A stretch of 39,326 nt of DNA from an uncultured Actinomycetota bacterium (GTDB taxonomy: Bacteria > Auribacterota > Ancaeobacteria > Ancaeobacterales > CAZGMX01). The notes beneath the pieces were generated by a model. The model saw only the letters and a program-made list of their open reading frames with translations. It was not told the DNA's origin and did no database searches. Shown piece after piece: positions 1 to 24,500 of the stretch. Every line of letters begins with the position of its first letter. Position 1 is the stretch's first letter. The DNA is taken from contig CAZGMX010000001.1 in the NCBI GenBank assembly GCA_964526865.1, positions 1 to 39,326 of the forward strand. The letters run 5' to 3'. The translations under genes were made by a program, and so were the position numbers.

Positions 1-3000
1 ATGTGAATGGCAAAAAGAAGACGAGTACAACACAGGGTGGTACGTCTGAAGGGGAGAGATTCAGACAGAGTTCTACATACGACGACAAGGGGTTGAACGT
101 GGTATCAAGCCATCAGGAATCCATGGATGCGTATGGAGTGGGAACTATGACCGACACAACATTTGAGTATGTGAATGGCAAAAAGAAGACGAGTACAACA
201 CAGGGTGGTACATCTGAAGGGGAGAGATTCAGACAGCACTCTATATATGACGACAAAGGAATAAACGTGATAAGTAGTCATCAAGAGTCGATGGACGCGT
301 ATGAAGTGGAAACGATAACAGATACAACGTTTGAATATGCAGGCAGCAAGAAGACGGCAAGTACAACGGCAGGTTCCACATCAGAAGGGGAAACCTTTAC
401 ACAGAATTCCACATACGATGACGGGGGCCAGAACGTGATGTCGAGCCATCAGGAGACGACAGACGCGGATGGAGTGGTGACGACAACCGACACAACATTT
501 GAGTATGCGGGGAGCCGGAAGACGACGAGTATTACAAATGGTTTCACATCAGAAGGAGAGAGATTCACACAGAACTCGCAATACGACGAGCGGGGACAAA
601 ATGTGGTGTCGAGTCATCAAGAGACGACGGATGTAGATGGAATTGTGACAATAACCGACACGACGTTTGAATACGAGGGGAGCAGGAAGACAACGAGTAC
701 AACGACGGGGTCTTCGACAGAAGGAGAGAGATTTACACAGAACTCACTATACGACGCGCTGGGACAGAATGTGACAACAAGCCATCAGGAGACGACAGAT
801 GCGTCTGGCGTGGCGACGATAACCGACACGACGTTTGAGTATGCGGGGACCAAGAAGACAAGAAGTACGACGACGGGATCCACGTCAGAAGGAGAGACAT
901 TCACGCAGGGCTCTGTATACGACGGCAATGGAGCGAACGTAGTGACGAGTCATCAGGAGACGACAGACGTAGATGGGGTGGTGACGATAACCGATACGAT
1001 ATTTGAGTATGTGGACAACAAAAAGGCAACGAGTACAACGACGGGTGGCACGTCGGAGGGGGAAATATTTAGACAAATCTCTACATACGATGCTCGAGGA
1101 AGGAATGTGGTGTCGAGTCATCAGGAGTCCAAGGATGCGGATGGTGTGGAAACGATGACCGACACGACGTTTGACTATTCGGGGAGCCGGAAGATAACGA
1201 GCACAACGGTGGGTGGTACGTCTGAGGGGGAAAGATTCACACAGACTTCTGCATACGATGGCTGGGGAAAGAATGTTATGTCGAGCCATCAGGAGACGAC
1301 AGACGCAGATGGAGTGGTAACGATAACCGACACGACATTTGACTATGCGGGCAGCAAAAAGACAACGAGTACAACGATGGGTTCCACATCAGAGGGAGAG
1401 AGTTTCACACAGCGCTCTACATACGATGAGCGCGGGAAGAATGTAATAAGCAGTCATCAGGAGACGATAGACGTATATGGAGTGATGACGACAACCGACA
1501 CGACGTTTGAGTATGTGGGAAGTAGAAAAACGACAAGTGCCACAAGGGGCGATACGACTGAAGGGGAGAGATTCATACAGAACTCTGTGTACGACGAGCG
1601 CGGGAAGAACGTGGTGTCAAGCCATCAAGAGACGACAGAAACGGATGGAGTAGTGACGACAACCGACACGACATTCGAATATGCGGGGAACAAGAAGACG
1701 GCAAGCACAACGGTAGGTGGTACATCTGAGGGGGAGAGATTCACGCAGGGTTCTGTATACGATGACAGAGGCAAGAACGTAATGAGCAGCCATCAGGTGA
1801 CGACAGAGGCAGACGGAGTGGTGACAACGACCGATACGACGTTTGGATATGAGGGGAACAAAAAGACGACGAGCACGACGACGGGGGATACGACAGAAGG
1901 TGAGACATTCACACAGAACTCTGTCTACGATGAGCAAGGAAAAAATGTAATAAGCAGCCATCAAGAGACGACAGATGCAGATGGAGTGGTAACGACGACC
2001 GATACGACATTTGAGTATGCAAACGGCAAAAAGACAACGAGTACAACGACGGGTGATACAACTGAAGGAGAAACCTTCACGCAGTATTCTACATACGACG
2101 GTAGAGGAAAGAATGTGACGGCGAGCCATCAAGTGACGACAGACACAGATCAAGTGGTGACGACAACCGACACGACATTCGAATATGCGGGGGGCAAAAA
2201 GACGACAAGTACAACGACGGGTTCCACATCAGAGGGAGAAAGATTTACACAGAATTCCACATACGATGATCGCGGGAAAAACGTGGCATCGAGCCATCAG
2301 GAGACGACAGACGCGGATGGAATCGTGACGACAACCGATACGACGTTTGAATACGCGGGGAGCAGGAAGACGACAAGTACAACGACGGGTACGTCTGAAG
2401 GAGAGAGCTTCACACAGACCTCTGTCTACGATGCTCGCGGAAAAAACGTAACAAGCAGCCATCAAGTAACGGCAGGTGTGGATGGCGTGGCAACAACGAC
2501 CGACACGACATTTGAGTTCGTCGAAAACAAGAAGACGGTGAGTACAACGACGGGTTTCACATCGGATGGAGAGACATTCACTCAGAACTCCATATACGAC
2601 GGACGAGGCAAGAATGTCATGAGCAGCCATCAGGAGACGACAGACGCGAATGGCGTGGTAACAACAACCGACACAGCATTTGAGTACGATGGGGATAAAA
2701 AGACGGTGAGTACAGCGACGGGTTCAACATCAGAAGGGGAGACATTCATACAGCGCTCTACTTACGATGATCGAGGGAAGAACGTGGTGTCAAGCCATCA
2801 AGAGACGACGGACGTAGATGGAGTGGTGACGATAACCGACACGACGTTCGAGTATGCGGGGGGCAGGAAGACGAGAAGCACGGCGATAGGCGCCACGTCT
2901 GAAAATGAGAGGTTCACACAGGCCTCTGTCTATGACGGCTGGGGAAAGAATGTGTTGAACAGTCATCAAGAGACGACAGACGCATTTGGATTGGTAACGA

Positions 3001-3527
3001 CAACCGACACATGGTTTGACTATTCGGGGGGCAGGAAGACGATAAGCGGATCGAGCGGCTACACATCAGAGGGAGAAAGATTCACACAGAACTCTACATA
3101 CGATAGCAGTGGGAAGAATGTGGTGGCAAGCCGTCAGGAGACGGCAGACGCAAATGGCTTGATAACGACGACCAACACGGAATACGAGTATGCGGGGAAC
3201 AGAAGGACAATGAGCGTTGCGAACGGGTTCACATCGAGGGGTGAGAGATTTACACAGAACTCCGCATACGACGGCAGAGGAAAGAACGTGGTGTCCACCC
3301 ACCAGGAGACAAGAGACTCGGATGGAACACTGACAACAACCGATACGACATTCGGGTATGCGGGGAGCAGGAAAACAACAAGTGCCGCGACGGGCTCTAC
3401 GTCAGGAGGAGAAACATTCACACAGAACTCAACCTACGACGGCAGGGGAAGAAATGTCGTGTCAAGCCATCAGGAGACCACAGAAGCGAATGGTGTGGTG
3501 TCAACGACCGACACGACGTATGTATAT
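1..3527 (+). repeat. In-frame tandem repeat array: 21 complete units of 168 bp (56 aa), with unit 15 at 165 bp. Left-truncated by the window edge.
   Basis: Unit boundaries read directly from the sequence: 3-170, 171-338, 339-506 ... 2187-2354, 2355-2519 (55 aa), 2520-2687, 2688-2855, 2856-3023, 3024-3191, 3192-3359, 3360-3527. Approximate consensus: AGSKKTTSTTTGSTSEGERFTQNSTYDDRGKNVVSSHQETTDADGVVTTTDTTFEY. Every unit ends in F/Y-E/D/G-Y/F. SHQ is present in 19 of 21 units. Confidence 0.95.
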
Positions 3528-6500
3528 ACAGGGAATAAAAAGACCAAGTGTATTACAAACGGATCTACAGATGGGGAAGCATTTGCTTCCGTGGAATTAT
3601 TTGATGAGAATCCCAAAGGGCCATCCTTTTATGCCTCCAGCTCGGGCAGAGGGGGAGACGCCGTGATTTGCGATCTGACTGTCTTGGCGGAGAATACGCA
3701 AAGAACATGGGAAAGTCCGGGGGATCCGCGAATGGCTTTAAAAGAATTTGCCGAAGCAAATATTCCTACCGACAGTGGATATTCCCTGGGTTGCAGCTCC
3801 TATCGCCCCGACAACGGCATGAAGGATTGGTCTCTATCCTTCTCCAAGACCAAGTCGAAGATCGACAGCGCAACGGGGGCGGTGACCGTTGAAACGATTG
3901 AGCAGGAAACCTTCTACGACACCACCGGTTCCCGCTCCAAAATAGGGCGAACAGCCACATCAACGGGCGATTCATCCAGAGGCGCATTCAGTTGGACAGA
4001 AACGCTGTACAAGACCGATGCCAGGGGAGAGAGGGTCAGAGATACCGCTGTGACGGTGGGGATGACAAAAGAGCTGACGTCCTATATCCAGAGTGATGTC
4101 TTCGACGATGCCCGCCATGTTTCACTCAGCAGCCGGCTGGACAGCACCATACCGGGAGAAACGCCGTCCGATCTGATCAACGGTCCCAAGAGAGGAATCG
4201 TCGAAAATCTCGCCCAAGCAGCAAAATCGGCGGTGAACAACGGCTTGAACCTCGAGATATTTTCCAAGTGCTATATTCCTGGCAACGAAAAGATATCCAT
4301 TACCTATCAACGGCCTTCCGACACAGGCATTGCGGTCGATGTGTTCTCCAAGTCTCAGAACAAACTGAATACCAGCGGGGATTTTGTCCATCAGACGTTC
4401 TATGAAAAAGCAGAAGGCCGCCTGCAGAGCGAACTCCAGAATGTTCCAAAACTCTGCACTGCCCCTCCGGGGATTCAGTCCATCACCCTTTCGGAGACGA
4501 CGACCAGGAAAGGGACGGAAACCCGCAAGCAGGTCGCGGCAACCAGCACGGATGGCAAGACACAGCTCTTTTCCGCATCGATAGAAGGGGCGGATTACGG
4601 GAATACCCTATTAACGTTTGTCCGGCAACTGCGTGGTGAAATACTTGCCCAAGGCGACACGGCCACTGTCGATCAATTAAAGCTGCTCGCATTCACGAGA
4701 CTGACACCCACATGCCAAATACGTCTTGCGTTATCCTTTAACCAGACCGCAACCAACGCAAGGCAGGAATACACCTTCGGCAAGTCAGACAAAGACAAGG
4801 TCTACACGCAAAAAACAGAATATGTATTCGGCTATCCCGACATCATCCAGAAGGCCACGTACGAAGAAGGCAATTCTAGTGAGAAGGGCTACATCGTCAG
4901 TGAGACAAATTACAATCCCGTCAAGTCCCGCAACGTGCCCATCAATCACACGATCACGCAAGACAATTGTGTGCGCCTTAGCTTCGACGACAGAGTCAGC
5001 TCTAAACATGCCAACACAATAGAATACTTGTCTGATTACAGCAGTGGTTGGAAAGACGGAAAAATGCAAACGATCAGGAGTGGAACCATATTCGCGAATG
5101 ACACCTATGCAACTTTGTATAACAGATATTATACCCCCGATGGCTGGTTGAAGGAGCAGTATGAAAACATGCCGCAAGATGAATGGGACGATTTGAAGGC
5201 AAGGGCTGACGAAGAACTGAAAGACGAAGAACGGCCATTGGAGGGAGCGATTACCACCTCTTCTTTGGACATGAATGCGACCGGCACTGCCGGTGGCGCA
5301 GAAGTGAAGACCATTACGACACAATACTCTGAAGGATATCGGATAAGAGATATTGTGGACAGCGCCACGGGGGGATATGATCCCATCACAAAGAAAAATA
5401 CCCTTCCAGTGAGAGCCGTTCGTGAATACAGCCAGACAAATGGAATGCCCAATCCCGTCCTTAAGGATTACACAGATGCCTCTGAAATTCCCAAGGACGT
5501 GATGCCGTTTCTTGCCAGAATCATCCAGAGTGATGGGACCACTATGGAATATCTTGGTGCGGGGTACGAAGGACAAGATGTTTGCATTACCAGGCAAAAT
5601 CAAGAAACCGTTTCAATGCCGTCGCGAACATATTTCGATGGCGTCAGCACTCAAACCATTGATGCCGGCACAACAAAAGAAACACGCCGCTTTGCCCCGC
5701 CGGGTCCCCAAGGAAACAACATGACCATTTTTAAGCCGAGCGAGAAAGATTTAGGGAAAACGAATGAAGTTAAATACGTCCAAGAGGGGACAGATCCGAA
5801 GCAAGACCCCACGGTGCCGGACACCCTCACCGTTTGGGACCAGACAAACACGCCGGCCGAAACAACGCTGCTTCGAAATTATATTGCACAATTTTCACCG
5901 GGCAATTTCATGCTTTACGAGGCGGGGTTCACGTATGGGGCATCAGGAGTCCCGCAACAAGGCCGGCAGATTGAATTTGATGGTGAAAACAACAGGGCAT
6001 ATGAGAGCTATTATCAGGGCGGCAAGAAAGTGCTTCAAACCAACTATTATACGGGGGCCCTAACCGGCGAGCAAATGAAGAGCATCCTGAGTTATAACCC
6101 CAAGAAAAAAGAAACGAAGGTTGATCCCGCCACTGGAAAAACGGAGGAAACAGAATCGTACGGCAACATCGGTCAATTGAAGGGCCCCAATGGCAAGAGT
6201 CTTTTCGTCTCCTATGTTGAGCAGTTCACAAAGGAAGGAACTCTGGCTCAAAGCGTCTGTTATGGCATCGACGGCACCGGCCGGAGTGTCCAACCGGGTG
6301 AGTTTATCCGGTACAACAAGAATGGCACTCGCGCAGCAAGAATTATGAGCAAATCAGGCAGTTCGATGGAACAGTTGCTGAAGGCCCTGGGCAAGGAAGA
6401 CACCGCAAGCCAGGAGATCGTGAGTTCCCAGCTCTTCTCCCTGCAGGAGTGGGATGCCGACGGCCAGCCCGTAAAGTGCATGTTGTATGGGGACGGATGG

Positions 6501-9500
6501 ACCGGCGGCGAGCCCTATGGTTTGGGAAATGTCTTTCTTTACAAGTACACACAACCAGAAGGCAAGTATTTGAATAAAGACGGCACCACGACATGGCAAG
6601 ATAAAAAAGTTTTGCCGGTGATTTATCAGAGTACCTATACGGAAACAACCGAGACGGTGGATGGCAAACAGGTGACAGTCAAACATGCGACAGGGCCGCT
6701 TAAACTCAAGTGGGGTTGGCAGAGCGAAGCGAAAAAGGACGCCTACATCGATGGGTGGGAAGAAAAGTTGTATAAAGATGGAAAGCTGACAGAGTCCTGG
6801 CTCAAGGCCACATACCTTGCCGGCGGGTCTGTTGACGGCCCATTTGGCTCAGCATGCAACAATTGTATCAGGAAAACAGAGTATTCAGCCGAAGAAAAAC
6901 CTCTTCTCATCACTGAGTACGAGGATGGGGAGCTCAAATACAGCATCACGTGTGACAACGCAACAGGCTTGCCTAACAAATTTGTTGTCTATAAAAATTT
7001 CAAGTTAAGAAATGTGGCAAATTCTGCGCACCCATGGCTGGCATTTCTGCCGGCGATCAAGGAAGGGCAAACCGTGGAACTTTATAAAGGGATGACTCTG
7101 ACGCGCGGGGCCGATGGCGCCTGGAGCGGTATTGGCACCTATGACATCAACAAGGGACTCGTGGGGGATGAGTATGTTATTGAATATGTGGATATTAATC
7201 CCGCAGATCCCTTCAAGTGTGAGCGCCACTACAAGGGCAGTAGTCCAGCCGACTGGGCAAACGGCCAAAAATGGTACGCGACAGTGACAGCAAATACAGT
7301 CGTGCCACAGGCCAGCGGGCTAATGACAATTGCCAAAGGGACGCGCTTCCATCTACCCCTCATAAAAGAGCATTATCCATACAGTGACTGGGTGGAGGGC
7401 TACAGGAATTTTGTCTTTATGGACGGCGCGGCGTACTTTGGTCAAGAAGGCCTGTATATTCGGAAAGGATATTCCACAGGGCCGGATGCCCAGGACAACC
7501 AATGCCGGATCCAGTCGATTGAGATTGTGAAGAAGGTGGCCACTGACTATACCACAGAACCCAAAACGATAACTCCTAAAGACAACGGACCATGGTTTGG
7601 AAATTACAATGTTTACCAATGGGACGGAGAGGAACTTCCAGCTCGAAACTATGTCTATAGCACGGATCCCAATTTCTTTATCTACAAGACAGCCCAATGG
7701 AATACGTTGTCGCGCCAGTGTTACGATTCAAATGCGGCGGCGGCAGTGTGGGCAGGAGGGACGGCGGGCGAATTTGTGCCGAACCCGGAATTGTACAGTT
7801 TATCGGGCATAACCATTTCTATTAAGGAGATTCCAAATTATTACGCGAAGCAAATCGGGACGGATGCGAACTATCGCCCCATTTATGCTTACAGGCCATT
7901 TCGTTATTTAGAGGCTACCATATCCGACGAGTGGACTGCCACCGCCACAGTCGATCTAAGAGCGCAACCAGTTTATGATGAGAGCCCCCTGGCCAGGACT
8001 TTCAAGGCGGGCACACAGTTCGGCAATGAAGATGATGTCATTTGCGCCGCCGGTGACTACATATACAAGATCATCTATGAAGTGAAACAAGAGTCGGGTT
8101 CCCCCGTGATTCCGATTGCCGATGGAATGAAAATTCTCCAGTGCCGGGGTGACGTAGAACGGGACGGTTACAAAATGCTCGCGGGCACCCAAATCAGGCT
8201 CGAAGACCTGAACAAATCCCCCCCTGTCATCTACAGCGGGACGATAGAGCAGGATGAATATGTAGAGGTCAAGTCTGATCAAGAGGCCGTGGGGGTAAAG
8301 TTAAAAATGCGCGTAAGACACGTCTTTAAAGACGGCGTGGAAGAAACGGACAAGAAACAAGTCGTCAAAAGATATTCCTACACGCTTGTTTCCGGCAAGG
8401 AAGAATCCGGGACATTTGAAATTCAACTGGTGCCCGTGGGTGCGACCGAAACTGGAGAGCCCACATTTGATCCTCCCAGAGTTCCATATACCAACTTCAA
8501 GACCAACGCCAACACGCGCATTAGATACGTCAACAATGCGATTGCGTCCGCTCAAACAGATGAAGTGAATGTGACCTACGACACGACGAATGCAGATCCA
8601 AACCATGCCCCGCAGGGGTGGATCATCATCGTCGTCAGAAAAGATGTCACGATCAAGCGTCCCGGCTGGGCGGATGAAATATTTAAAGCAGGACAAACAT
8701 ATAAAATGCCGCGAGGCGGCGACAGCACGCCCCGGCCGTATCCGCCGGCGGACGAAAAACTGCCGCTCGTCTATACATATTGGACGGAAGAAGTAAAGAC
8801 CGCCCAGACGGAATACCACACCAATGCGCAGGGTGTCCGGGTCCCAATATCCAGAAAACGCAAGATGATTCAATTGACGAAGGATGACACGCCTGTCGCA
8901 GTCTATGAGGATGTCTATGAGCGCACCACCATTGCCGGCGGTGGTTTTGATTGGAAACACGTCAGCCGGGAATACTTGGAAGATGACATTGAAGGCAGGC
9001 CCAGCACGGCGGAAAAACCCGGACAGTTGACGGTGTATCTTGCGGGCACCAAATTCACTCCGGACAAAAACGGGGACATCAATCCGCTGGCGCCGGATGA
9101 GGGGACTGTCTTGTACTTCGGCGCGCCCGATGCGCAGGGCAACCGGACCATTCGCGAAATGACCGCCAAGGGAGGCTACCCCATCAAGTACGCCGAATAT
9201 GACTACGACCCGGCAAAGAATTATGACAAGGCCTACATGAGCGCGCAATTTTTTAAGGATAATGAGGCCTATCAGGATACCCTCTTTCACAACCTGCCCG
9301 ACAGTGAAAAGGCGAAATGTCTGGTCACGGAGAAGGATCTGGAGGGAAAAACAAAAGTCGAGAACGGAGTCAATGTGCTGAAGGGGTATGTTCAGATTCC
9401 TGGGATAGGGATGATTGTGCCTAATTTCAAGCGCGTTAAGGATGCAATCGGCAAGGAGACAGGAGAAATACTTCCCGGATTCAACTTTGTGCGGTTTATG

Positions 9501-12500
9501 GATGAAAATTACGGAGATTTCCAGGACGATGAAAACGAAGAAGTTGAGGATCCAGTCACGGGTAAAGTCACAGGTCAGGACAATCGCTGGAGAGAATTGG
9601 ATTTTAACGAACAGGGCGAACCCTATTTTGACGCGGATGGAGTGGCCCAGATGAAATATGAATATTCATATCACGAAGATGCAGTCTGGGCCTACGATTA
9701 CACGGAGTTTGATGAAGATGACCCCGATGAAGAGTGGGTGCAGGCGTCATGGGAACTGCACATCCAGACCGTGAAGCAGGACATGGAATATTATGGGTTT
9801 TGGGATGGTCCCTGCGACGGGAGCGTAACGGAACAATTCACCCAGCGGGTGGCGCTCTTCCAGGACTATCAATCCAGAGTCGCCGGCAACATCTACCAGC
9901 GGATGCTCCAGGATACGTATCAGAGCCTGCTCGTATTGTATCAGACGGTGTGCGATAACAAAAACTCGGAGCAGCAAAGGTTGTCCAGCTTTCTTGCAAG
10001 TGTGGATCAGCAAAAGATGAACTACAACGAAATGTTGAGAGTCGAGTTGTCAGATTGGTTTCCAGACCAGGCAAAAATTGCGGGATATCGGGCGGAGCTT
10101 GAAAAGCTTGAGCAGTTACGAGCCAATCAGCTCACGGAAACAGAAGCCATCGTGGAACGGCTTGATGACTATCGCGACGATATCGTCGATCTTTTCGACG
10201 ATTTAGGGCCCTACGGGCCGAGGCGCTATCTGGAGGACGGCGGGATCGACGGAATGAGAGATATTTTGGACGTGCGCGGGCAATTGCTTCCGATCATCAA
10301 CAATTATTTGAGATACCAGGACGGTGCGCCGAACAGTGACGCTCTGAACGGTGAGTTTTTGACGGCGAAGCAGCGCATCGAGGATTCAAAGGCCCAATTG
10401 ACTCCATTGAAAAACAGCGTCAATGGCGGCGATTCCACAGGCTATGGTCAGGCCGTCAAAATATTGAATGACAATCTATTGAGAGTGTCCGATGAAAAAG
10501 TCGATCTTCTGGACAGCATGCTGGGCCTGCTCAAGATGGACAAAGTGGTGGCGCAAATCGAAAGCCTGACCAGCGACTACGACAAATCCGTTACGGATAT
10601 GAAAAGCACGATCCGGTCAACGTTGGCGCGACGATTGGGGGAATTGCAGGACCGCAAGCAAAAGGCCACAGAGTTGAAGGGGGAGTTGGAGGACTTGAGT
10701 ACGGAATTGAACGCGAAAAAATTGGCAATGGCCATGAACTTGGAGCGTGCTTATGGCCAGGCTGGCATACCGCTGGACTCGGCGGCCGCCCTGGTTGACA
10801 GGATTGTCAAAGAAAAATCTGTTGCTTCTATAGCTTCAGCGGCCTGGCAGCCTTATGCAGAATTGACGGAAAGCGATCTCATTAGTGATGCAGCGGCGAT
10901 ATGGGATGCGATGAAGCCGGTCATAGACAAGCAGAATGAAAAACCCGGCGCATACCAGGATATGTTTAATCTGGAGCTCATTGAAACGCTCATAGAACGC
11001 AATACTGCACTTTCGAACGGTTTTGAGGCAAGTTCTGACATGAAAGACTATATCCTGGATACAAGTCTTACCATGAAGGTGGCGGACAGTGTTGGGAACA
11101 TATCGTCTTTCCCGGTCAAAACGTTTTTCCAGACAAGGGAATGGAACCCGACCTTGAAGGCGTATGAAGGCATCTATGACGATTTCCTCGATACTAAATT
11201 GCAGACCTACTACTTGCTAAAGAATCCCGCAAACATCAGGCTCAAGGAATATTTGGCGGCACGGGGCAATGAATTTAAGGCGGATACTACCCTTACGTAC
11301 AGTGTGTCTCACATGAGTCTTTACATGGATAGGATTCTCAATGCCAAGGGGGCGGATGCCGCTTCTCTGAGTGAGGGGTGTCAGGAGACACGTGACAAGC
11401 CGCTGGCCATTTTGGGGAATATCATGGCCTACGTTAAAAAGAATCTCCAGCTTTTTGCCAACGCAGATAAGCCGGAGGTGCACAAACAGAAGGTGTCTGC
11501 CCCGGCGGAAAGATTAGACGGTTCAGATACGACATTGGGTACGCTGTGGGGTGCGACGAAGTATTGGGCGGGAGAAGCATGGGATACGGGTAAAACAATA
11601 TATACAGCTGTTTTGGATATAGGGTATCAGATCGACCGAGCAGTGTATTGGATGTCCGGAGGCACAACCCCTGATGGAATGACGACCTCACTACTTGGCG
11701 AAAAATGGATTCTCGACTACAGGACATCTGCACTGGCCGCCGCAGAAGAGCGGGCATACGGGACCAGAACGTATGACATCAGTGCGGACAAGACCCAACT
11801 TCAAAATAGTGCGGCAATGCTGAATGTCACACCCGAAATCGCTGCCGTGATACAGGAGCGGCAAGACCTTGAAGCCGACCAGGCGGCCTTTTCAGCAGGG
11901 CCTCTTTCAACCGTGTGGTCCGGCGTGTGGTCCGGCATTGGTGCGGCGTGGAATTGGGGTACAGGGCTTATTGATAAAAAACTCTTCAAGACAAATAAAA
12001 TGTTCAATGCATTGGCGCAAGGGTTTTCACAGCCTATACGCTTTCTCAAAGGTGCCGCACAGTTGGTGGCATCCGGGCTCTGTAGTCTTGCGGGTGCCGT
12101 AGTAGCACTGGTTGGGAATTTTATCAGCGGGGGGCACACATGGTGGGATAACCCGCTTACAAAAGCGGGCGTCTATTTGGGGACAGAAGGTCTGCTGAAT
12201 GTTGCTCATGCCTTTGAGAAAAAGCTGACATATGTTGAACCAGGTGCTCTGGAAGCACAGCAGGCTCAGCTGAAAGCCACGCAAGAGCAATATATCCGGG
12301 GGCAGGTTTCGATGAGCCAGCTCATGACGCAAATGGACAGAGCAACCGTGTTGCAGAAGCAGGTGCAACAGCGAGAGATTGCGTTTTGGAGCGGCGCTGG
12401 TCTTGTGATTACGGCGATGCTCGCAAGGGATATCTTTGGTATTGGCAAAGGATTGGCAAAATTTGTAGTGGATCGGTTTGTCATGAACAGAGTGAAGAAT

Positions 12501-15500
12501 TTGTTGGCGGAAAAAATGGCGGGTGGTTTATTCAAGGAATGTGTAAGGGCATCGGCCGAAGGCGGCGTGAAGGCGGCCTTAAGAGAATTTGGAGTGGAAG
12601 GTGTCGCGAAAGAACTCGCGAGCGTGGTGGGCAAGGAAGGAAATTGGTTGGCGGCGAGAATGTACAGTGAGGCGACCTTGAAAGGCGGGCTGGAGACAAT
12701 TTGGCGGGGAATGTCGAAGGAAGTGGTGGAAACGAAAATTGCCACTGCAATGGCCGGTCTTGCGGAAAAAAGTTGGCTGGGCAGTTTGGTGGATTATGTT
12801 GTTGCTGGGTTCTCTAACATCACCGGCTGGGTAGGAAGAGTTACGGGGCTTGGTCTGGGATCGACAGATGGGGTTATTCTCGCCGGGTTGGAGAGACGGT
12901 TATTTGGCGGGACGATAGAAAAGTTCATCAGCGACAAGGGTCTCCAGGCAGGTGCCGAAATCGCGAAGGTTCTGGTAAAAGATGGTCTTCTCTCGGAAAG
13001 TTTGGCCAACTCGCTGGCATCCCGGTTGATGGCGGCTATTACAATGCGTGAGACGCTGGGTCTTGTTGGGATGATGAGTATAGGGCAATGGATGTGGTAT
13101 CGCACCTTTGGCGGGGATGCCTATCTTGATCAGTTTGCGGCGGGGAAACTTCTGAGGGCGGCACCTAAATGGAATGAAGCGGCTTTGACGGAGACGCTGC
13201 TGAGATCGGGATTGAAAGAGACGACGGAGGGGCTTGTCAAGGATGGTGTCAACAAAGTGATAGCAACGAGAGGGGTGGAGGCCTTTGCCAGAAGGCTTGT
13301 CGGGGATACGGTGGGGCTGGAAACGCTTATCATGCAAAGAGGTTTAGGGAGGGGAGTTGCTTTTGTTTCCGAGCGGCTATCTAAAATTCTGCCAGGTGCC
13401 AGCCGAGAGGGGATACTAAAGGCGTCACGCGAAATTACCAATCTCGTCTATAGGGATTTTGTGACAGCTAATGTGCTGTCCCTCGTGCCGACGGGTACGG
13501 GTGTTTTTGGCAAGTTTATGGACCGGATTATGGGCCGCGGCTGGAATAAGGTGGACGAGATGCTGGTGCCCGGATTCAGGAATTCTAGGTTCCAGCTGGA
13601 GAGAATAATTAAGGGACAGGGTGCGGAGGGTGCCGCCAACGTCCTGGTCGATAGAATTGGTTTAAACAGCTTCTTCGCGAACAGGCTCACAGGGTTGGCC
13701 GAAAGGTCGTTGATTGAGGACATGATGGGTAAAGGCGGTCTGACAAAGTTTGAGAGTCTTCTCAAGGAAAAAGGTGTTCAGGCCGCTCGCGAGGCATTGC
13801 TGGCGGAACGCGGCCTGGGTGAAAAATTTGTCGCTTCTGTAACCAGCCGCCTGGAACAAAATGTGGTGCGGCAGGTTGTTGAAGCTTTCAGCCGTGAAGG
13901 AAGCGGGGCCGGCATAGCAAAGTTTGTGGAGCTGAGCGGTGAAACCAACTTTGTCAGCCGAATGGCGCGTATGGGATATGATCGGGAGTTGGCGGGCAGT
14001 ATCGCCAAACGGGCCCTGGGTGGGGAATTTGCGGTGGAGGCGGGGCTGGGCCAGAGACTATGGCAGAGTGTTACGTCCCGATTCCTGAGGGCGGGCAGGG
14101 AGTTTAAGACCTCCGTGGGAGAATTTGGCGTAAGGAACGTTCTCTCGCCCTATGAAGAATTTGGTCTTTTCGGTGAGAGAAAAGAGTTGGCCGGAATTTT
14201 GGATTCCACCAAAAAAATGTTCACGGATATTTACAACAAGGTGACGGGCTATAGCCCGCCCCATTTGCCGGGCGCTGCCGTGGAGCCGTTCACCCGTGCC
14301 ACGATGGGACTGGTTCCGACAATCATCCGCAATCTCGCGTTCGAAGGGTTGAATCTTGGCAAGATTCTGACGTATGCCCACATCGTGAATTATGGATTGA
14401 GCAAGTTTGATTCTTCCGCCTTGATGCCGGCGTGGATGATAAAGGCGAACGATTGGATCAAGGCCCAATTTAACGCGTGGGCCCCATCGTGGGTGAAACA
14501 GGCGTTGGCACCCGTTGCAGCCGCCGGCAATTGGCTCAAGTCGTTGATCATTCCCACACACGATCCCTTCGGCGGCAAGGTGGAGAAAATAGGTTTCTTT
14601 GCCGCGGTGGGACAGGATTATTGGAACAACTTCAAGGAGGGGATCAAACTCTACGTCATCATGCCCTTCTTGAAACCCATCGCCAACTTTTTGGGTATAG
14701 ACAAGGTGTTTGGCCGGCTGGCAAACGCATACGGAAACCAGCTTGTCGGCCGCGCGGGGGGACAGAGTCTTTTTGGCGACGTGGTGGGCAAAGTATTTGG
14801 CGCGCGAGGGACCGCGTTGATGCAAAGGGTCGGCGCAATGTTTGAAAACGAAGGCCTGAGGCATGCCCAGTCCTTCTGGGTGACGGACAAGACATTCCAA
14901 TTTGGCTGGTGGCTCTCGGAGAGTATTGGATCAGGAATTTACAGCCTGAACAATTGGATATCTGGCGGCGATAAAAATACCATTCTTCATGATATAGGAA
15001 CCTCCTTCATGCCGGGCGGGTTCATGTACGAGTATCTGCCCCTGCTTTTGATCGCCTCCGGCCCCGTGGAGACCCGCGCCATCATCGGCCGTGAAAAGTT
15101 CCACAACGACTTAAGAATGGAGCAAATGAACGGCGCGAGAAATTCCATGATGGGAGAAGGCCTGGCCAAAGAAGGATTCATTACGGTCGATGTTGCGAGA
15201 AGACTGGGCGAACAAGGCACCGATGCAGCATTGAGCCGCATGCGGTCCGGCCTGAATTATGGAGCGTTTGAGAGGGGCGGCGCCAATGGGGTCGTGTTCC
15301 GCGATGCAGAGACCGGCAAGATCCTGGACATCATGGGCGGCAGGGAAATGGGCTATCGCGCGATGCTCAACATGTCCGACAGCGCTGGCTACGCCAGCCT
15401 GACCAAGGCATTGGAGAGAGATTTTACCCGCAGCGAGGCGGACCAGCTTGGGCTGGAGGCGATGTACCGCCAGGGAAGAATCGGGATCGACGGCAGTGTC

Positions 15501-18500
15501 AATGATGCCGTCAGCCGTTTATTTGGATTGGATAGTGAAGGCCGTGCACGTTTGAATTCTGATGGACAGAACGCGCTGGTTAAGGATGCCCAAGGCATGG
15601 CGACGGGCAGGGTTCTTGTCGGCACCGTGGAGATGTCTCTGGCGGAAGCAAAACTGCGATACCATGCCTCGATTCGTGATGTCTCCGGGGATACCCTTCT
15701 GCAGGCCTTTGCGCGGGGAGTGACATCGCAGACCGCCCGCGCCATCGACCTGATGCGGCCGGATGAATTGTTCAACGATGATCACACGTTGACTCAGACA
15801 GGGCGCGCTGCCTTTGGCGCAAACGGCGACCGGGTACTCAATTTTAGTGGAGTTGAAGTAACCCGTGATTTGGCGCTGGAGAGAGTTCGTGCGCTCAGGG
15901 AAGGACGCGTCCATGAGACTGGGGAGTTTGGAGGATTCAAATACGAGGGCACAGCAATACGGAGCAGTATCGAAACACGGGTTATGGAGGAGGCCCTGTT
16001 GGATCAGATTTGCAAAGACGTAAGCGGCGATGCCGAGCGCCTGAATGCACGGCGCGTCGTCTTGGAAGCCCTCAAAACGGGCAATGAAGTAACAATGCGA
16101 GAGGCGGCCAAACTCGTCCGGACCGAGCACGATTTGGCGGCGGCGCGCGCCCTCTATGAACAATTTACGGGAGAGAGAGTGACGCCAGAGGGCAACAACC
16201 TTACCAAAGTGTCAGAGATTGCCAACGTGGCATCCTTCCTCACCAGGGCCAATGAGATTGCCGAGGGGATGGGGATGGGCCGGGGCATGTTTGAGTCGGC
16301 GGATGCCTTGATGGACGGCGGCGTTACGGGACAAGCCAGTTTGGCGTTAAAGTATCTGTCGCCCAGCACCATCGTGGTGGAATCGGTGGGATTCCGTGAA
16401 AGAATCATTCGGATGGAAGAATCCGGTCCGCAAGACATGATCCATCAGGCATTGGGCAATGCATACAATGCGTCGGTAGGGGAGGTTGTCTATCGGGGCG
16501 GCGCCTACAATTTGATTGTGCCGGTCAGCGGGGAGGAAAGAGAAAGGAACCGCGTCAGACTCGTCGGAGAGCAGGTCTTTGGCCGGGACGTCGGGGGCGA
16601 ATTGAAGGTCAAGACCTACGAACTAAAAGACGGACGTTTTGAGCAGGTCTTTGTCAAAAATAATATGGAGCTGGGGTATCAGATCGCAGAGACCAAGGTG
16701 TTGGACACCAGGCGATTTGCCGACGGCACTGAGGGATTCTCGTTTAGGAACACGAACAATATCCTTCAGACTGTGATCAAAGATATCAATGGGAGATTGG
16801 TCGTGAACGACAGCAAGGGCACACTGAATCTTGCCGATGTGCGGGATGTAAAAGCGCAGGCCATCAGAGAGGAGGGAACCGATACGAGGGCTCTGCATCT
16901 GGTGGAGATCCAGATGCGTTCGGGAACGAACGGGGAAGGCCGTTATATGCGAAGATTTGTTACGGATTCCAAGGGAAATCAGATCGGGAAGAATTTGGCC
17001 ACCGACGTGGCCTGGAACAACATCAACTTTGCGGGGACGGAGTTCATCGGCAAAGAGGCCTGTCACGGGGCGGGAGAAGTTGTGGTACTGGATGTTGGCG
17101 CGCGTGGAAAGCTGTCTGTCGTGACGGACAACCTGGGCCGTGGCCTGGGGGTCTTTGAAGGGAAGGTGCGATTTGTGGATGTCGGTGCAAACGGCAGGGA
17201 CGCGAGTGAAACGCTGAAAACAAAGCTGATGGGTGGGGGGCTGGATCCAGCGGAAGCAAACAAACAGGCGGCACGGCTCAGCGGTGTGCGGGAATACCAG
17301 TTGAAGGTGGACATGATGGATGATGCGGGCAGGACCGTTACGCGGGATTGGACGGTGAGAAAGGGGGTGGAGTCAACTGTCTCCTTTGGCGCAAGGGCGC
17401 TGGACGGCCAGGTAGAGGTGCGCATCAGCGATCTGTTTGGCCGGGAGCGGAAAGGGAGCTATCAGGGCACGGAAATTGAGGATCTCGGCGGTGTGCTTCG
17501 TCTGAAGACGGCCGAAGGATTTGTGAATATAGATACCGCAAATGGCAATACCGTGCGGGTTGAAGGGGGCAAGATAAAAGTGTCCATGGATTCGCTGGTG
17601 GACGAAGTGGAAATCAAGACGGGTTCCCTGGATGTCTCCAGGCTTTCCGATGCCACCGTCGTAATGGACAGCACGAAGAACATGTTTAGGGCGAAATTGA
17701 AAGTGGGGGATGAAACGCAGGAAATCAGAATGACGCGGAGTGCGGGCACGGGAAGCGTGGTGGTGGAATATGACGCAGAGAAAACGGCTGTGGACAGTAC
17801 CCGTGTGGCTATTGCCAAAGAAGTGCGGACGATCGATGTGAATCCACTGAACGGATCCAAGCAGGATCGTTGTCTCACGAATGTGGATGTTTTTGATAGC
17901 GCCTCCAACAGATCCATCAGGGTGTTGAGCGGTGTAGAAGGACGGGCGGTTTTGGAAAACGGCCAGATCAAGGTGGAAAATGCGCGTCTGAAGACGGATA
18001 CGGTGGTGGATATCAGGCTCCACGAGAGCGGGGCGATGTATGATCTGAACATTGTCAAAACGATCCGGGAGGGTGTTAGTACCCGCCTGGAATTCGGCAG
18101 AAATTTTGTCGATCAGAGAGGGCAGATAATTTATGAAGGCAAGGGCGCCAAGGCGGACATGGATGCTTTACGGTTTGACGTGGATACCACCGGCTCAGAA
18201 GCATGCCGGCTATTTACTATTGCGCAGGGGGGGGTGGAAGTTGGACGAGGCGTTGTGGGTAAAGAGGGTGTGATCGTTCGTGCGGACAAAACCGGCGCAT
18301 ATTTTTACGATGCCAGCGTGAAGGACGATACTGGCATGAAACGATTCACCAGGATCGCGGATGCGATGGCCGACGGGTCCATCCACACCATCAGGGTTTC
18401 GGAGGGAATAGGCGGAAGCAGTTACCGTCAAGTGGAGATTGCGGGCAAGACGGCTTTTGTCAACGGGGAGGGAGTCCGGATATCGAATTTTGTCGACAAG

Positions 18501-21500
18501 AGTTTTGTACAGCCCCCCCTCTTTGACGGTCAGTCGCTGCGTTGGTTGGAGATGGATGGGAAGGGAGTCAAAGTCATTGAAGCGCGAGAGCTCAATGTCG
18601 TTGTTGGGAAAGACAAGGCCGGGATCGACATCGTGGAGCAGAAAACAAAAGTTGTCACGCGGTCCATCGACGAATTGACGGGGGATTTTTCAAAGGGCAA
18701 GGTGACGACAAGGATATTGGACAGCCAAGGAAAAAATTTCTTGCGGGCTGTTACGGATGTGAGATCTCAAGAGGTGAAAGAAGTTGAGATAGAGGGTGTG
18801 GTGAAGGAGGTCGTTTGGGATGCGGACGCGGCCGAATACAGGATGGTGATGGATATTGAAAACAGTCCCACCCTCAGGGGAGAGCGGGATGGACAGAGGG
18901 TCATGGACCGGACGTATCATGTTGATGGAAAAGGGAATTTCGAATTTTATGAGGAAACGTCGCAACGAATTGACCGCACGGAGAGTGAGAGGCAGGGCAA
19001 GGATGTTTGGGTGGAAAGCAAGACAACGCATGATTTCATGGGGAATGAAATCGACACCGTTTCCAAACAAAACATGGACCGGGTGAGAAATGCGTTTGAC
19101 GGCAATGACAAGGCCGGAATTCCACTGGCGGATGCGTCAGCGAGGATGGAGCGGTCAGCGCTCAAAAAAGAATTTGATGCGGAGGTTGGGAAGTTGAGAG
19201 AGGAAGGATCCGGTTCGTCGCTGAGCCGTCTGGTGGATATCTTTAAGCAGGTTGTGGGCATCAAGGCGGGCAATCTTTCCATGGCGGAGAGGGCGGCCTT
19301 TGGAAAGTTTCTGATGGAAAGGACGATAGAAAGGGACGGTTCCGGCATTAAAACCTTGATGGATGAAGCCCTGAAAGGGGAGGTCGGCAAACGGGACTTC
19401 AATATGATAGAGCAGGTGTCAGAGGCGTTGGGATTGCCTGATGTTGTCAGGGCCTTTGCGGAGGCATCTCGGTCAACGGACAAATCCCGTGCCCCACCGT
19501 ATCCAAAAAATCCTATGACCGGCAAGGAGATCAAGACGGTCGCGGACCTGGAGTCATTCCTGAGAGACAACTTTGTGGCGTATGCGCAGGTGTTCTTTGA
19601 AAAAGTCGGAAAGAAATCAGACGGAGGCTCGGTGAGTTGGACAACCAAACAGGTCAGCTTGCTTCAAAGAATCCTCCTGGGCGAAACAGGTCTCCTGGGC
19701 ACAGGCGGTGGCAAGACGGGGGTCAACATCATGGCCGCTGGGATCATGAGCGAACTGGGCAGGCTGATGGAGGCAGAAAATCTGGAGACCGCCGACGGCA
19801 AAATACGGCGGCAATATGCCGCGATCCTCATGACGGAAAATCCCGCTTCTTCGAACAGATACGTTGAAGACGACATGGGCGTCAAGTTGACCCATCAGGA
19901 ACTTGCCAGTGCGTTCGGGATCAAGCTGGTGAACGGGTCCAAGTTGGGACTGAAAAACCAGTTGGATGACCTGGCGGCGGCACTCGAGTCGCGAAACACC
20001 GTGGTCGTGATCGATCCCACCCAGGCCGGCTTCTTGAACCTTTCCCGCCGGGAGAACTCGCGGCTGGCCAACGCGTTGGACAAGACCACCCATTTGATCA
20101 TCGATGAAATCGACTTATTGGCAAAATCCACCCAGCAATATATCCGCAGTGCCAACAAACCGGGAGAGCGGGAGAATCAGGCAGAGGTTGCAAACTATTT
20201 GGAGTTGGGCGAGACAATTGAAACAAAATTCAAGAGGGTGGAATCCGAGGACGTGAATGCAGTCTATAACAGGAACGAGGCCAAGATAAAAGAATACGAT
20301 GAGGCCCTGGCCAAAGGGGAAATCGTTGAAAACGGCGTGAAGAAGGCCTTTGGGGCACAGGAATACAGACAGGCGCTGGAAGACCTGGGTGTCCTGGTGT
20401 ATGCAAAACAGAGCGGAGACCAGGGGGTCAGCGGTTTTACCAATAAGGCGGCGGAGAAATATTTTGCGACGTTCAAAAAGGGAGATGGCGCAAGATTTGA
20501 AAAATCGGACATCGAGCAGGCCCTCAGGGCTCAGGTGCAGGAATACGGCACCAATTATACGCTGGAGGCGCACCGTCTCCGACCCGTGGAAGGCAGCGTG
20601 ACAGAGACGCAGTACAGCGACCTGTGTTTTGCCGTGAATCTGGCAAGGAGGGGAAATGCCGAACTGGAAAAGGCAAAAGGAGGGGTCGATTCACAACTAT
20701 ACAAAGACAATTTCCTGAATCCAAAAGATTATGTTGCCAACAAGACCAACACCCAGGCCTCCTTCATCGAGTTCTGGCAAAACATCAGCAGTGCCAATCC
20801 GAGTGTTGATGGAAAGGAAGCCCAAGGCCTGCAGGTCAGCGGCACGACAGGAACAGGCGGCCAATTCCTCAACGTGATCAAGGATACCTTTGGAACGCCC
20901 ATTGCCCTCATCGAGGAGTCCACATTCGACAGGAGCCGCCTGACTGACGAGAACGGCAATGAAAGGATACGAGACGAGAGCGATGATGTGGTCACAGAAG
21001 TGCGGGCATTGGCACGCCGGAATGTTGGAGACAAGGACACCAATGCCACGGTCCTCGTGAAGGTGAAAGATGTGAAGAGCGGCTTGCCGCTCGTGAGCAG
21101 GGCGGGGCATGAGTCGTACCGGTGCCGGAGCGAAAGGGACTCTCGGGGGCAGTTCAATGTGTTCAATGACCGGGACACGATGAACGAGTCCATCAAAGTG
21201 AGACAGGAAATGGACGGAAGCCTGACAGTTGTCCGCGTTGGGGAGATGAGCAATCCAGCGCGGGCGAGTATGGAATCGGCAAGGGATGCTTATACCCGGG
21301 CGCAAAACGAGTACTATGAAAAAATGGACGAGGCATCCAGGAGCGCCATGAACGAGGCCAAGGCAAAGTACGACCGGGCGGATTCGGAATATCAACGGGC
21401 CCTTGCCGCGGAAGATGCCCTCATCCGGAATAATCAGGCGCGGGAAGTCCTGCTGGAAGACGGCACACCAAACGGCACGACGGCCTTCATGACGCTGGAC

Positions 21501-24500
21501 AAGTCCAACAATGTGTTGAGTTTGAGAGATGCTTCCGGCAAGGAGATCATGCGGTCCGGCAAGTATCTTTCTGAGATGGGGCTCACGGTAGCCAAGAACG
21601 GTCAGATCAAGATGGGAGAGACCACCCTGGGGACCGCGAAGCGATCCAACCGCATCCTTGTGGTTGATGAGTTGACGCCGGCGGAATTCATCAACCTGGC
21701 GGCCAACTATGGCGGGCAGAATAAAGACATTCTGATGACGTACAACCGCAACACGCTGACGGGAGTGGATTACCGCGGTGAATTTGACCAGTTTGTTTTT
21801 GGAATCGAACAATTGGATGAGAACCTCGCCAACCAGACGATGGGCCGCGTGGGGCGGGAAGGCGCCCTTGCCAACCGGTTCCTCTTTGTGGTCGAATCGG
21901 AAATGCAGAAGTCTCTGGGCCTCATCGGACAGAAAGAAAGACTCCAGGGACTTCAGTCCGTGTGGGAGGCAGGGCGGGACAGAGAGAATTCGGAATTTGC
22001 CCAGCAGTTTAGGGAGGGCAAGATCGAACGTCAAAAGCATCAAGAATCGGTGGAAAACAACCGGTATCAGGAGAATCTGGATCTTTTGGCAAAGTTCGAT
22101 GAAACCACGGCAACCGGTTTTGATAAATTGACCAGTTTGGAGAAAATGATGCTGGTGGGAAAATACCGCGCGGCATGTCAGGCGGCCGCGACGGAACTGT
22201 TCAAGGTGTCGGACACGGCGAGGTCCAAGGAAGTGTTGAAGCCATTGAAAGACTTGATGGACACCTTCAAGGTGAACGGCGCTGACACGGCGGCCAGCAG
22301 ACTGCTGGAGAGTGTTTTTGAGAAACACCTGAGCCGGCGGCCCACCAATGCCGACATCACGCGCAGCGAAGACGATCTGATAAGCGGCAAACAGAGGGTT
22401 GCCGAGTCGCTCTTGCGGGCACTGGGGGAAGCGGATACAGCGGCGCAAGAAGTATTGAAGGCGCTGCAGGAGGGCACCGCCAATGTGGAAGCGGCGGACG
22501 CGGCCCGGCTCAAAACAGAGATCGAGAAGGGGATCGAGGGACGCAAGGCCATTCGGGAACAAATTCAAAGCGATATCGACAACAACTTTGCCGGTGTCAG
22601 TGAAAGATTGGCGGGCAAAAAGCTGGCGGATTCACTCAGCAGTGCGAAAGACACGCAGGCAATCTATGATTTTGCGATGAGCAAGATTGCTCCTCACATC
22701 GTGCCGGAGATGCGCAGTGAGGCCATGCGATCTGAAAATGAAGTTTTGGCCAGGCAGCTGGCGCAAGAGACCCAGACTGCCAGGGCGCCTCCGGCTCCCA
22801 AGACAGTGGAGGAATTCCGCGCAAAACTCACCGAGAGTCAAGCCGGCAGGGAGGGAATGCCCGCCCTGCCCGGCTACACCGACGCCCAAGTCAACGCAAT
22901 GGTCACAGCCAGCAACTTAAATGCCGCGGGAACCCAGGAGGAAAAAGAAAGGCGCCTGGCCAGTGCCTGGAGCATGCTTCAGGGGGGTTATGCGGGTGCC
23001 TTGCAGACGCATTTGGTGTCGCTGTCCGGCGCCATGATCCCACAGGGAGCCACCCAGCAGGAGATCAACACCCAAATATTCGTGGGGTTGATGAACCGGG
23101 GCATTCTGGACACCGCCGCCGCGCAGAATGTGTCTTTGCAGCAGATTGGTTCTATTGCCTACATTCAGGCCCAGCTGCAAAGTTCGATCCCTGATGTGTC
23201 CGTGGCACTGACCGCGCAGGATTGGAACGACATTCGCAATTTGGGGGAAGGTTCTCTGGTCAATTATGTTGCCCGGGCGACGCAGGTCATATTGGGAAAA
23301 ATAATCACGGCACAGCGCAGTGATTTGAGTGCCGATGAAAGGACGAACATTGAAGCGCACGTGGTGGCGCCCTTCGTGCGGGTGCTTCAGCAATACCGGG
23401 ACCGGATTGCCAATAAGGAGCTTGGAAAACTGCCCACCGTCGCGGAAATATTTGGCGTCGCCAGAGACTTTGTCCAGGAACTGAAAAAGCAGGGAAGGCA
23501 GATGGATGAGCAACAGACCGAAGCAATGGAAGATGTGTTTGTAGACGCGTTGATGGCCAATGTGGACGGCATCGGATTTGGCCAGGACAAAGTGGAGGCC
23601 CTGCGCGTCATGGATCGCACGGTTCAGAGTGTGAAACCGGGCAGTATCCTGAAGGCCGAAACGGCGATCAATATATTGAAAGAAAGGGATCCCATCAAAC
23701 GCAACGACATGATCCGGACCATGCTTGTTGCCGCGGCAAACGAGGACCCGGAAGGTGCCTTCCGGTTTGATGTCATGAGCCGTTTGAGGCGCAGTGCGGA
23801 AAGTGGAACGGTGCTCTCGGCACAGGCGATCCAGAAAGTGATTCAGGATGTCCGCACAAAATACAACATCATGAGCGATGAAGTGGCGTACCGTTGTCTC
23901 AGAGAGGATATTGCGGGCCTCTTGCAGGGGCTGGGGCAGGGGAACCGCGAGAGAATGTTGGACGCAAAGCTCAAGGGCATGTTCGGAAGTGTGAAGCTGG
24001 GTGAGGAGGTTCCCCAGGCAAAGCAGAAAGCGGCCATGGCTCTCCTGCCCAGGTTTATGGAAATCATGACAAGCTTGAGTCCGAGCGTCCAACTCAAGGA
24101 ATTGATGAAGGCTGCCGTGGAAATAAACAAGGGCATTAGCAATCCAGAAGAGCAGTTGGATACCGGGCCGGAAGCCTTGCAGCAGCTTGCCAACGCCCTG
24201 CAGAAGGGTGTGGCTCCCATCGCCGTCCAATACATTGTGATTCAGCGTCTGAGGAATTTGACTGCGGAGAACCTGGATCTGAGCGATATCACCTTGGACG
24301 GCATTGTGGCGGATGCCAATGGCTTTGCTCAGGATGAAAAACAACTGCAGTCCCGCGCAAAGGTGCTGGAGTTGGCCGGCGGAATCCTGTTTGAAAAGGC
24401 GATGGAGCAGAACAAGCTGTATCAGGCGGAGCAGGCAGTCGAAATAAAGATCGGTAAAATCGTGGAAGCGACAGTGCCGGAGGCACAGCGCTCGGGTGTT

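Follow-up and report, generated by a model that had tools for sequence, protein, structure and literature searches.

A threonine-rich orphan repeat of 56 residues, predicted to form an open beta-hairpin ribbon, in a giant open reading frame of an uncultured bacterium

The stretch of DNA analysed here, referred to below as the window, comprises 39,326 nucleotides (nt) of contig CAZGMX010000001.1 (GenBank assembly GCA_964526865.1), which originates from an uncultured bacterium. Translated in frame +3, the window consists of one single open reading frame (ORF) on the forward strand (nt 3..39326, +), composed of 13,108 codons, free of stop codons and cut at both ends, a fact that was missed in a preliminary description of the same sequence. 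The most N-terminal visible part of the corresponding giant protein, longer than 13,108 amino acids (aa), is occupied by a tandem array of threonine-rich units which constitutes the main subject of this study. As this array crosses the left edge of the window, the copy number given below is a minimum (at least 21).

The array contains 21 complete head-to-tail units of 56 aa (168 nt) in frame +3 (nt 3..3527, +; consensus AGSKKTTSTTTGSTSEGERFTQNSTYDGRGKNVVSSHQETTDADGVVTTTDTTFEY), as delimited from a unit table and by Tandem Repeats Finder (TRF), which recovered a period of 168 and 20.9 copies between nt 9 and 3517, with 72% matches and 1% indels. The nucleotide identity at a lag of 168 reaches 0.714, versus 0.272 +/- 0.007 in 200 shuffled sequences (z ~62) and 0.279 in the remaining part of the window. 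A superperiod of two units (336 nt) was considered and rejected, the identity between units one apart being equal to that between units two apart. Unit 15 (nt 2355..2519, +) is the sole unit of 55 aa (165 nt); it lost exactly one codon in the TTG-STSE stretch of its first predicted strand (strand A, see below) and the frame is kept. Threonine accounts for 15 of the 56 consensus positions (26.8%) and for 22% of the actual residues of the array, which also holds 11% serine (33% Thr + Ser), 11% glycine, 2% isoleucine, about 0.5-0.7% leucine and no proline, the beta-forming residues representing 39-42% of the total. In the alignment of the 21 units, which are about 69% identical to one another, 14 columns are invariant and 10 nearly so, among them F20, Y26, F54, Y56 and four glycines located in predicted turns. 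Each unit carries once an S-H-Q-[EV] motif at unit positions 36-39, in predicted strand C (for example nt 1788..1799, +, in unit 11), with SHQ in 19 of the 21 units (16 SHQE and 3 SHQV), SRQ in unit 19 and THQ in unit 20. The histidine of this motif is nearly the only one of the array, 20 of its 21 histidines being found at that position. The preliminary description had already reported at least 21 in-frame copies at exact 168-nt spacing, one copy of 165 nt with an unbroken frame, a consensus of about 27% Thr, these very motif counts and an array interrupted by the window edge, and had suggested the tandem-repeat search; the period, the spacing, the shorter copy, the composition and the counts are all recovered here, and the interrupted edge is the left one.

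Two particularities of the array borders can be added. Units 1-2 (nt 3-338, +; VNGKKKTSTTQGG...SHQESMDAY...) form a distinct sub-type and share 84% DNA identity with each other, and some of their features are found again in unit 7, which hints at sub-families or at a local duplication of more recent date close to the cut edge. On the other side, the array ends C-terminally with a degenerate, partial 22nd unit (TGNKKTKCITNGSTDGEAFASVELFDEN; nt 3528..3611, +), retrieved with hmmsearch by a hidden Markov model (HMM) built on the units (aa 1177-1203, profile positions 2-29, i-Evalue 0.001). Further downstream (nt 3867..4133, +), the same model found hairpin-like echoes of the unit at aa 1289-1310 and 1346-1377 (ETFYDTTGS, SDVFDDARHV), with non-significant i-Evalues of 0.88 and 0.057; a degenerate continuation of the array beyond unit 22 was thus only marginal and was not retained.

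The copies are far from identical at the DNA level, with a mean pairwise identity of 72% between units and a maximum of 84%. Over pairs of units, the median synonymous divergence (dS) is 1.13, close to saturation, the median nonsynonymous divergence (dN) is 0.22 and dN/dS is about 0.19; moreover, invariant residues do not rely on one codon but on several synonymous ones. These values are those of old copies kept under purifying selection. Since they are old and selected, and since no pair exceeds 84% DNA identity, the array is not an assembly artefact, and, for the part present in the window, there is no need to fear that the assembly collapsed or expanded near-identical repeats.

The preliminary description also divided each unit into two halves of 28 aa. 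Part of this proposal stands, the mean BLOSUM62 score at lag 28 being +0.165 against -0.458 +/- 0.157 for the other lags shorter than the unit (z ~4) and the conserved glycines being located at unit positions 2, 17, 30 and 45, with an alternating 15/13/15/13 spacing. However, the profile-profile alignment of the two half-units is not significant (E 0.32). The turn lengths predicted for the two hairpins of a unit are also unequal. As judged from the sequence, this half-period is weak but real.

The fold of the array was predicted with AlphaFold2, using an alignment of 18 sliding four-unit blocks for a model of four units and an alignment of two rows for a model of ten units. The four-unit model (predicted local distance difference test, pLDDT, 96.2; predicted TM-score, pTM, 0.81) is entirely composed of beta-structure and displays 16 consecutive strands, four per unit, while the ten-unit model (pLDDT 86.5, pTM 0.56) displays 40 consecutive strands and no helix. 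In unit numbering, the predicted strands span positions 4-14 (A), 19-26 (B), 31-41 (C) and 47-57 (D), and the predicted turns are S-E-G-E, D-G-R-G, D-A-D-G-V and A-G-S, for which DSSP gives lengths of 2-6 residues in both models. According to DSSP, both models are uninterrupted antiparallel meanders devoid of helices. The conservation of the units follows a comparable pattern. The dominant period of the column entropy is exactly 2 residues (power 423, versus 144 for the next period; reached by 4 of 5000 shuffles), and in all four strands the even positions are far more conserved than the odd ones (entropy 0.36 versus 1.33; Mann-Whitney p = 4e-5). A conserved glycine lies in each of the four turns (G2 in 16, G17 in 20, G30 in 21 and G45 in 19 of the 21 units). 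This two-residue periodicity of conservation, the four turn glycines, the absence of proline and the near absence of leucine therefore provide support, independent of AlphaFold2, for a repeat built of beta-hairpins, one face of which is conserved. Taking the models and the conservation together, it is quite likely that each unit forms four antiparallel strands, that is two hairpins, and that the units follow each other in one uninterrupted meander. The double hairpin per unit that had been foreseen in the preliminary description, where the modelling of three to four units was advised, is thus found again in the predicted structures as a long and regular array of hairpins; the solenoid that it also evoked is not, the predicted shape being an open meander ribbon.

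The composition of the predicted strands is that of a polar sheet lacking a hydrophobic core, the residues of both parities being mostly T, S, Q, K, E and D. The conserved, even-parity face would present K-T-S-T-G-T on strand A, F-Q-S-Y on strand B, N-V-S-Q-T on strand C and T-T-T-F-Y on strand D, and the odd-parity face would carry K5, R19, H37, E39, D51 and E55. On this otherwise variable parity, H37 and D51 are each conserved in 20 of the 21 units and E39 in 18. The sole unit with the H37R substitution is also the sole unit with D51N; this coincidence constitutes weak evidence because the unit concerned, unit 19, is the most diverged of the array (55% identity to the reference unit), and the mutual information between columns was set aside as uninformative with 21 sequences. 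If the same parity is shared by all four hairpins, a requirement for a sheet of strict repetition, H37 would lie beside D51, E39 beside R19 and E55 beside K5 of the next unit, and these three pairs could constitute a cross-strand ladder of ion pairs. The S-H-Q-E motif, whose His/Gln/Glu triplet could form a ligand- or metal-binding rung according to the preliminary description, would then be split between the two faces and could not form a single site, since H37 and E39 would share the face of D51 while S36 and Q38 would point to the other side. The net charge is about -3.7 per unit and is unequally distributed on the predicted ribbon: the edge bearing the A-B and C-D turns (SEGE, DADG) gathers 4.6 acidic versus 0.8 basic residues, and the opposite edge (turns Y-AGS-KK and YD-GRG-K) gathers 3.5 basic, 2.6 acidic and 3.1 aromatic residues.

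Despite this regularity, the relatives of the repeat were searched without success. Pfam, NCBIfam and PHROGs yielded no real match over the whole 13,108-aa ORF: the Pfam hits ATPgrasp_N and DUF3885 resulted from scores summed over the repeats, none of their individual stretches being significant, the other hits of single units were noise, and TPR_2 and TrbC remained under their respective cut-offs. No match was found in the PDB, either with the sequence of all 13,108 aa or with a profile of four units at E<=10, nor by word-indexed search in a database of 5.8 billion protein clusters queried with four units, aa 1200-2700 and aa 9903-11402. A full HMMER search of 1.84 billion representative proteins with the 21-unit profile gave two weak matches (E 1e-6 and 4e-5), which were judged fortuitous on inspection, one being a repeat of low complexity and the other a protein that combines a Cys-rich repeat with RCC1. 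Degenerate-pattern scans of genome, metagenome and viral contigs, based on a unique segment located after the array and on the unit alignment, gave no candidate confirmed by tblastn, and the phages and plasmids searched by tblastn were equally negative. Among the collections searched, from which the source contig is itself evidently absent, the 56-aa unit thus appears as a sequence orphan inside an orphan giant protein.

A relationship with the YD/RHS repeats deserves a particular attention, as the preliminary description presented the unit as a new variant of this type. For this comparison, the YD consensus was taken as G-x3-9-Y-x-Y-D-x-x-G-R-L, recurring about every 20 residues. All 21 units contain Y26-D27-x-x-G30-[KR]31-N32-V33, which corresponds to one of the four turns and occurs once per 56 aa. 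The recommended searches with the YD/RHS models nevertheless remained negative: PF05593 matched neither a block of 1,300 aa (E<=0.01) nor any of the 21 single units (E<=10), and TIGR01643 (NCBIfam) gave no match at E<=10. The alignment of the units with the 11 YD repeats of Escherichia coli K-12 RhsA by hhalign was limited to YD~~G[KR], six columns with a probability of 5.5%. The PxxxxDPxGL cleavage motif, which serves aspartyl autoproteolysis at the end of Rhs cores, ahead of a toxin domain, is absent from the 13,108 aa of the window, as scanned with the regular expression P....DP.G; a lone DPMGI is present at aa 9474, where the preceding proline is missing. As in the Rhs cores, the BC shells of Tc toxins and the YD shells of teneurins, the array would associate tandem beta-hairpins in a continuous antiparallel sheet with a Y-D-x-x-G-[KR] turn. 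It differs from them by a strict 56-aa period with four strands instead of irregular repeats of about 20 aa, by the lack of a plug and of the cleavage motif, by its Thr-rich and strongly acidic composition and by the open shape of its ten-unit model. What holds in the YD/RHS proposal is the hairpin architecture and the YD-like turn; the membership in the family does not hold, as far as these tests can tell, and the shared turn would reflect either convergence or a descent too remote to be detected.

The predicted structures were also compared with known folds. With four units, Foldseek ranks first in the PDB an engineered single-layer sheet derived from Borrelia OspA (2fkg; E 2.4e-4, TM-score 0.31), followed by three Rhs cores (E ~3e-4, TMq 0.12-0.17), by the YD shells of teneurins (E also ~3e-4), then by porins and VDAC, all with TM-scores of 0.35 or less. 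In the viral library BFVD, a phage lipoprotein comes best (TMq 0.51), ahead of MORN proteins (TMq <= 0.40) and tail fibres. With ten units, neither Rhs nor teneurin proteins occur among the top 50 matches. Closed barrels, LptD among them, are matched over local stretches only, with a root-mean-square deviation (rmsd) of 40-48 Å, and globally the model superposes best on the open beta-belt of ApoB100 (9e9r, 9ea7; TMq 0.37 over 625 columns). The models thus look like an open and elongated ribbon, neither a cocoon nor a barrel. The OspA sheet is made, like the array, of solvent-exposed antiparallel hairpin repeats lacking a hydrophobic core and rich in threonine and charged residues; however, it consists of a few hairpins capped by globular domains, compared to at least 84 predicted strands here, and shares no sequence similarity with the array. 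The beta-belt of ApoB100 is also a very long open antiparallel ribbon, but it is amphipathic and wraps lipid, whereas both faces of the predicted ribbon are polar and hydrophobic residues are scarce in it, and the two are not homologous. MORN repeats likewise line up hairpins in a single extended antiparallel sheet, with a period of about 23 aa, different motifs and no Pfam MORN match in the array.

From these elements we propose a model in which consecutive units join edge to edge into a single-layer ribbon, a beta-meander with 84 strands or more, which would measure about 40 nm in length and 3 nm in width, at an assumed ~4.8 Å per strand. This ribbon would be polar, Thr-rich and coreless, with one conserved face, an acidic long edge and an opposite edge both basic and aromatic. 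Most probably, it would work as an extended and stiff stalk or spacer, as a surface for repeated interactions, or as both, in a giant secreted or surface protein. On balance, we hold it somewhat probable that the array is such an orphan beta-ribbon, functioning as a stalk or an interaction surface. Giant proteins of this kind are not without precedent: section 8 of 10.64898/2026.06.07.730766 counts 137 Pfam-dark proteins among the 916 Omnitrophota proteins that reach 10,000 aa or more and finds that, when such proteins are clustered at 30% identity, 80% of the clusters are singletons, and section 10 of 10.1101/2023.11.21.568195 mentions RHS-like antiparallel beta regions of about 1500 aa predicted in giant proteins of Omnitrophota. 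Rods of single-layer beta-sheet repeats are moreover known to project surface proteins of staphylococci, such as SasG (PMC4458895). These G5-E rods of SasG and Aap and the “Periscope” surface proteins (PMC4458895, PMC8201768) share with the array the tandem single-layer beta-sheet repeats and the property, both predicted here, of forming long stiff rods. They differ from it in their fold, since their sheets are three-stranded and come with a collagen-like segment, and their period is 128 aa. No match to Pfam G5 was found in the array, nor to the Pfam models of cell-wall-binding repeats.

Several points weigh against this proposal. The fold relies on AlphaFold2 fed with an alignment of paralogous units from one protein, and this program has a documented bias towards confident yet unrealistic beta-structures for repeats (PMC11795689). 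Only two of the five ten-unit models are confident, the three others having a pLDDT of 33-42. The loop lengths given by DSSP (4, 4, 5 and 2) do not fit with a single conserved face unless a bulge or a one-residue shift occurs. The ribbon rather than the tube, the exact register of the strands and the sharing of one face are features that we infer from the models, as are the surface location of the protein and the role of the array from a general resemblance to the systems cited above; since the window truncates the ORF on either side, neither a signal peptide nor an anchor nor any neighbouring gene is in view.

Among the alternatives, two concern a further organization of the ribbon and a predominant binding function. 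In the former case, the ribbon would wind into a hollow tube, its successive turns held by complementary edges, in a way that recalls the antiparallel beta-helix tubules of about 1500 aa predicted in giant proteins of Omnitrophota (West-Roberts et al. 2023, 10.1101/2023.11.21.568195); such a tube could be a conduit or serve as a rigid needle. These tubules are described there as continuous antiparallel beta-meanders of more than 1,000 aa in unannotated giant ORFs, likened to RHS, and the array, with at least 1,190 aa of uninterrupted predicted antiparallel beta-structure in a giant ORF, is of comparable length. The oppositely charged, turn-bearing edges, the single conserved face, which could line a lumen or serve for packing, and the local similarity of the four-unit model to the spiral shells of Rhs and teneurins would also fit with a tube. 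On the other hand, compared by their description, the published tubules are hollow antiparallel beta helices with alpha-helices regularly interspersed on their exterior, whereas the models of the array look open and are devoid of any helix; closed barrels fit the ten-unit model only with an rmsd above 40 Å, and an open belt is what it matches best globally. A tube seems rather unlikely to us. In the latter case, the array would mainly be a repetitive binding surface, either through a His37/Asp51/Glu39 metal site, present once per unit and zipping ribbons together, or through a Thr/Ser/Gln ladder of the conserved face directed to a periodic ligand, for instance a glycan, a mineral or ice. The G5 repeats of staphylococcal Aap and SasG self-associate in a Zn2+-dependent manner through histidine and acidic residues. 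Such Zn-dependent adhesion, reported through reference 25 of PMC4458895, offers a precedent for this function, and the restriction of nearly all the histidines of the array to the motif, the conservation of H37, D51 and E39 despite their variable parity, the co-occurrence of H37R and D51N and the almost invariant T/S/Q/F/Y ladders of the even face, including T48-x-T50-x-T52, agree with it. Conversely, no metal-binding, lectin or ice-binding family matches the array, the substitutions of unit 19 have little weight given its divergence, and the faces are assigned from the shared parity; this function as the principal one is, in our opinion, as doubtful as the tube. A bolder extension of both ideas, to which we give no more credit than to either of them, would consider the array as the longest natural single-layer beta-sheet yet proposed, in which His37/Asp51/Glu39 and the charged edges would allow metal zipping or tube formation, making it a switchable structural or adhesive element.

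The other alternatives call into question the fold, the family or the array itself. AlphaFold2 could be over-confident and the array a disordered linker, possibly O-glycosylated and mucin-like, as could be suspected from its 33% Thr + Ser, from the inclusion of mucin 22 among the repeats for which the bias to beta-structure was noticed (PMC11795689), from the three ten-unit models of low pLDDT and from an alignment lacking independent homologues. This seems improbable when considering the 14 invariant and 10 nearly invariant columns, the glycine of each of the four turns, the period-2 conservation, the dN/dS of 0.19 at near-saturated synonymous sites and the absence of proline. Furthermore, repeat families that have significantly diverged give consistent models with all methods according to PMC11795689, and the array belongs to this regime because its units are only about 69% identical. 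A true but extremely diverged YD/RHS member, forming a cocoon around a C-terminal cargo, would account for the YDxxG[KR] turn present in all units and aligned with the YD turn of RhsA, and for the Rhs cores and teneurin shells found with the four-unit model; the array, of about 1,200 aa, is also comparable in length to Rhs shells. Against it stand the silence of PF05593 and TIGR01643, the six-column hhalign result, the empty PDB profile search, the absence of the cleavage motif, the regular 56-aa period, the low scores of the Rhs cores with four units and their disappearance with ten, and the ~11,900 aa that follow the array, far too much for an encapsulated toxin. This reading is largely refuted, and we consider it very improbable. 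Finally, tandem repeats are prone to mis-assembly and this array is cut by the window edge, which could evoke an artefact or non-coding repetitive DNA; a frame open over 39 kb, a single length change of exactly one codon, pairwise DNA identities of 84% at most and 72% on average and the low dN/dS make this extremely improbable.

Outside the array, the ~11,900 aa that follow it in the giant ORF are essentially non-repetitive. The protein is rich in beta-structure, threonine and proline up to about aa 3000 and again beta-rich between aa 10000 and 13000, and the intermediate region (aa ~3500-9900, nt ~10500-29700), rich in alanine and leucine, is probably alpha-helical. Alanine rises to 19% in aa 9001-9500, and the TPR_2 match mentioned above is located near aa 9302-9325 (22.6 bits for a cut-off of 27). 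The sole strongly hydrophobic segment of the 13,108 aa, GAAQLVASGLCSLAGAVVALVGNFISGG (aa 4017-4044, nt 12051-12134, +), resembles a Gly/Ala zipper and could be a membrane-inserting element; just upstream, an aromatic/Gly repeat, VWSG-VWSG (nt 11912-11950), is detected by TRF as a 12-bp repeat. Comparison of the protein with itself by jackhmmer brought out a beta-rich module of about 100 aa, present in five or more diverged copies between aa 9935 and 11975 (nt 29805-35927, +), with 29-38% identity in the pairs aligned by BLAST, a v.DL..n.I.TyQeNA.GiR motif, a hairpin-like appearance and no Pfam match. Two segments of about 65 aa, located 4,000 residues apart (aa 4900-4970 and 8917-8976; nt 14700-14912 and 26751-26930, +), are also significantly similar to each other (32% identity by BLAST; 1.5e-29 by jackhmmer after iteration).

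The base composition of the window looks prokaryote-like, though it does not point to one taxon, with a coding strand composed of 59% purines (27.8% A, 31.1% G), a G + C content of 0.615 at third codon positions (GC3), an observed/expected ratio of 1.02 for CpG, which is not depleted, and of 0.54 for TpA, and threonine chiefly encoded by ACG and ACA. The minus strand displays many long ORFs, mostly with TTG or GTG starts (e.g. 20697-22568, 22917-24344 and 35952-37244), the longest listed encoding 623 aa and the longest open stretch reaching 644 codons, none of them with a Pfam or other family match. They were rejected as genes and are regarded as shadow ORFs of the purine-rich coding strand. 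The window holds no marker gene, and neither Rfam families nor tRNAs were found in it.

The array represents a new orphan repeat family in a known kind of architecture, and a rare structurally interpretable handle on a “dark matter” ORF of more than 13,000 aa. To our knowledge, single-layer sheets have so far mainly been studied in the few hairpins of OspA and in their engineered extensions. If the predicted fold is right, the array would be a natural coreless single-layer beta-sheet, tens of nanometres long and of almost crystalline repetition, which would make it a model for the stability of coreless beta-sheets and a candidate scaffold for protein design. Under the same condition, it would also show that hairpin ribbons resembling those of RHS proteins may emerge in sequence families that have no detectable connection with the YD repeats.

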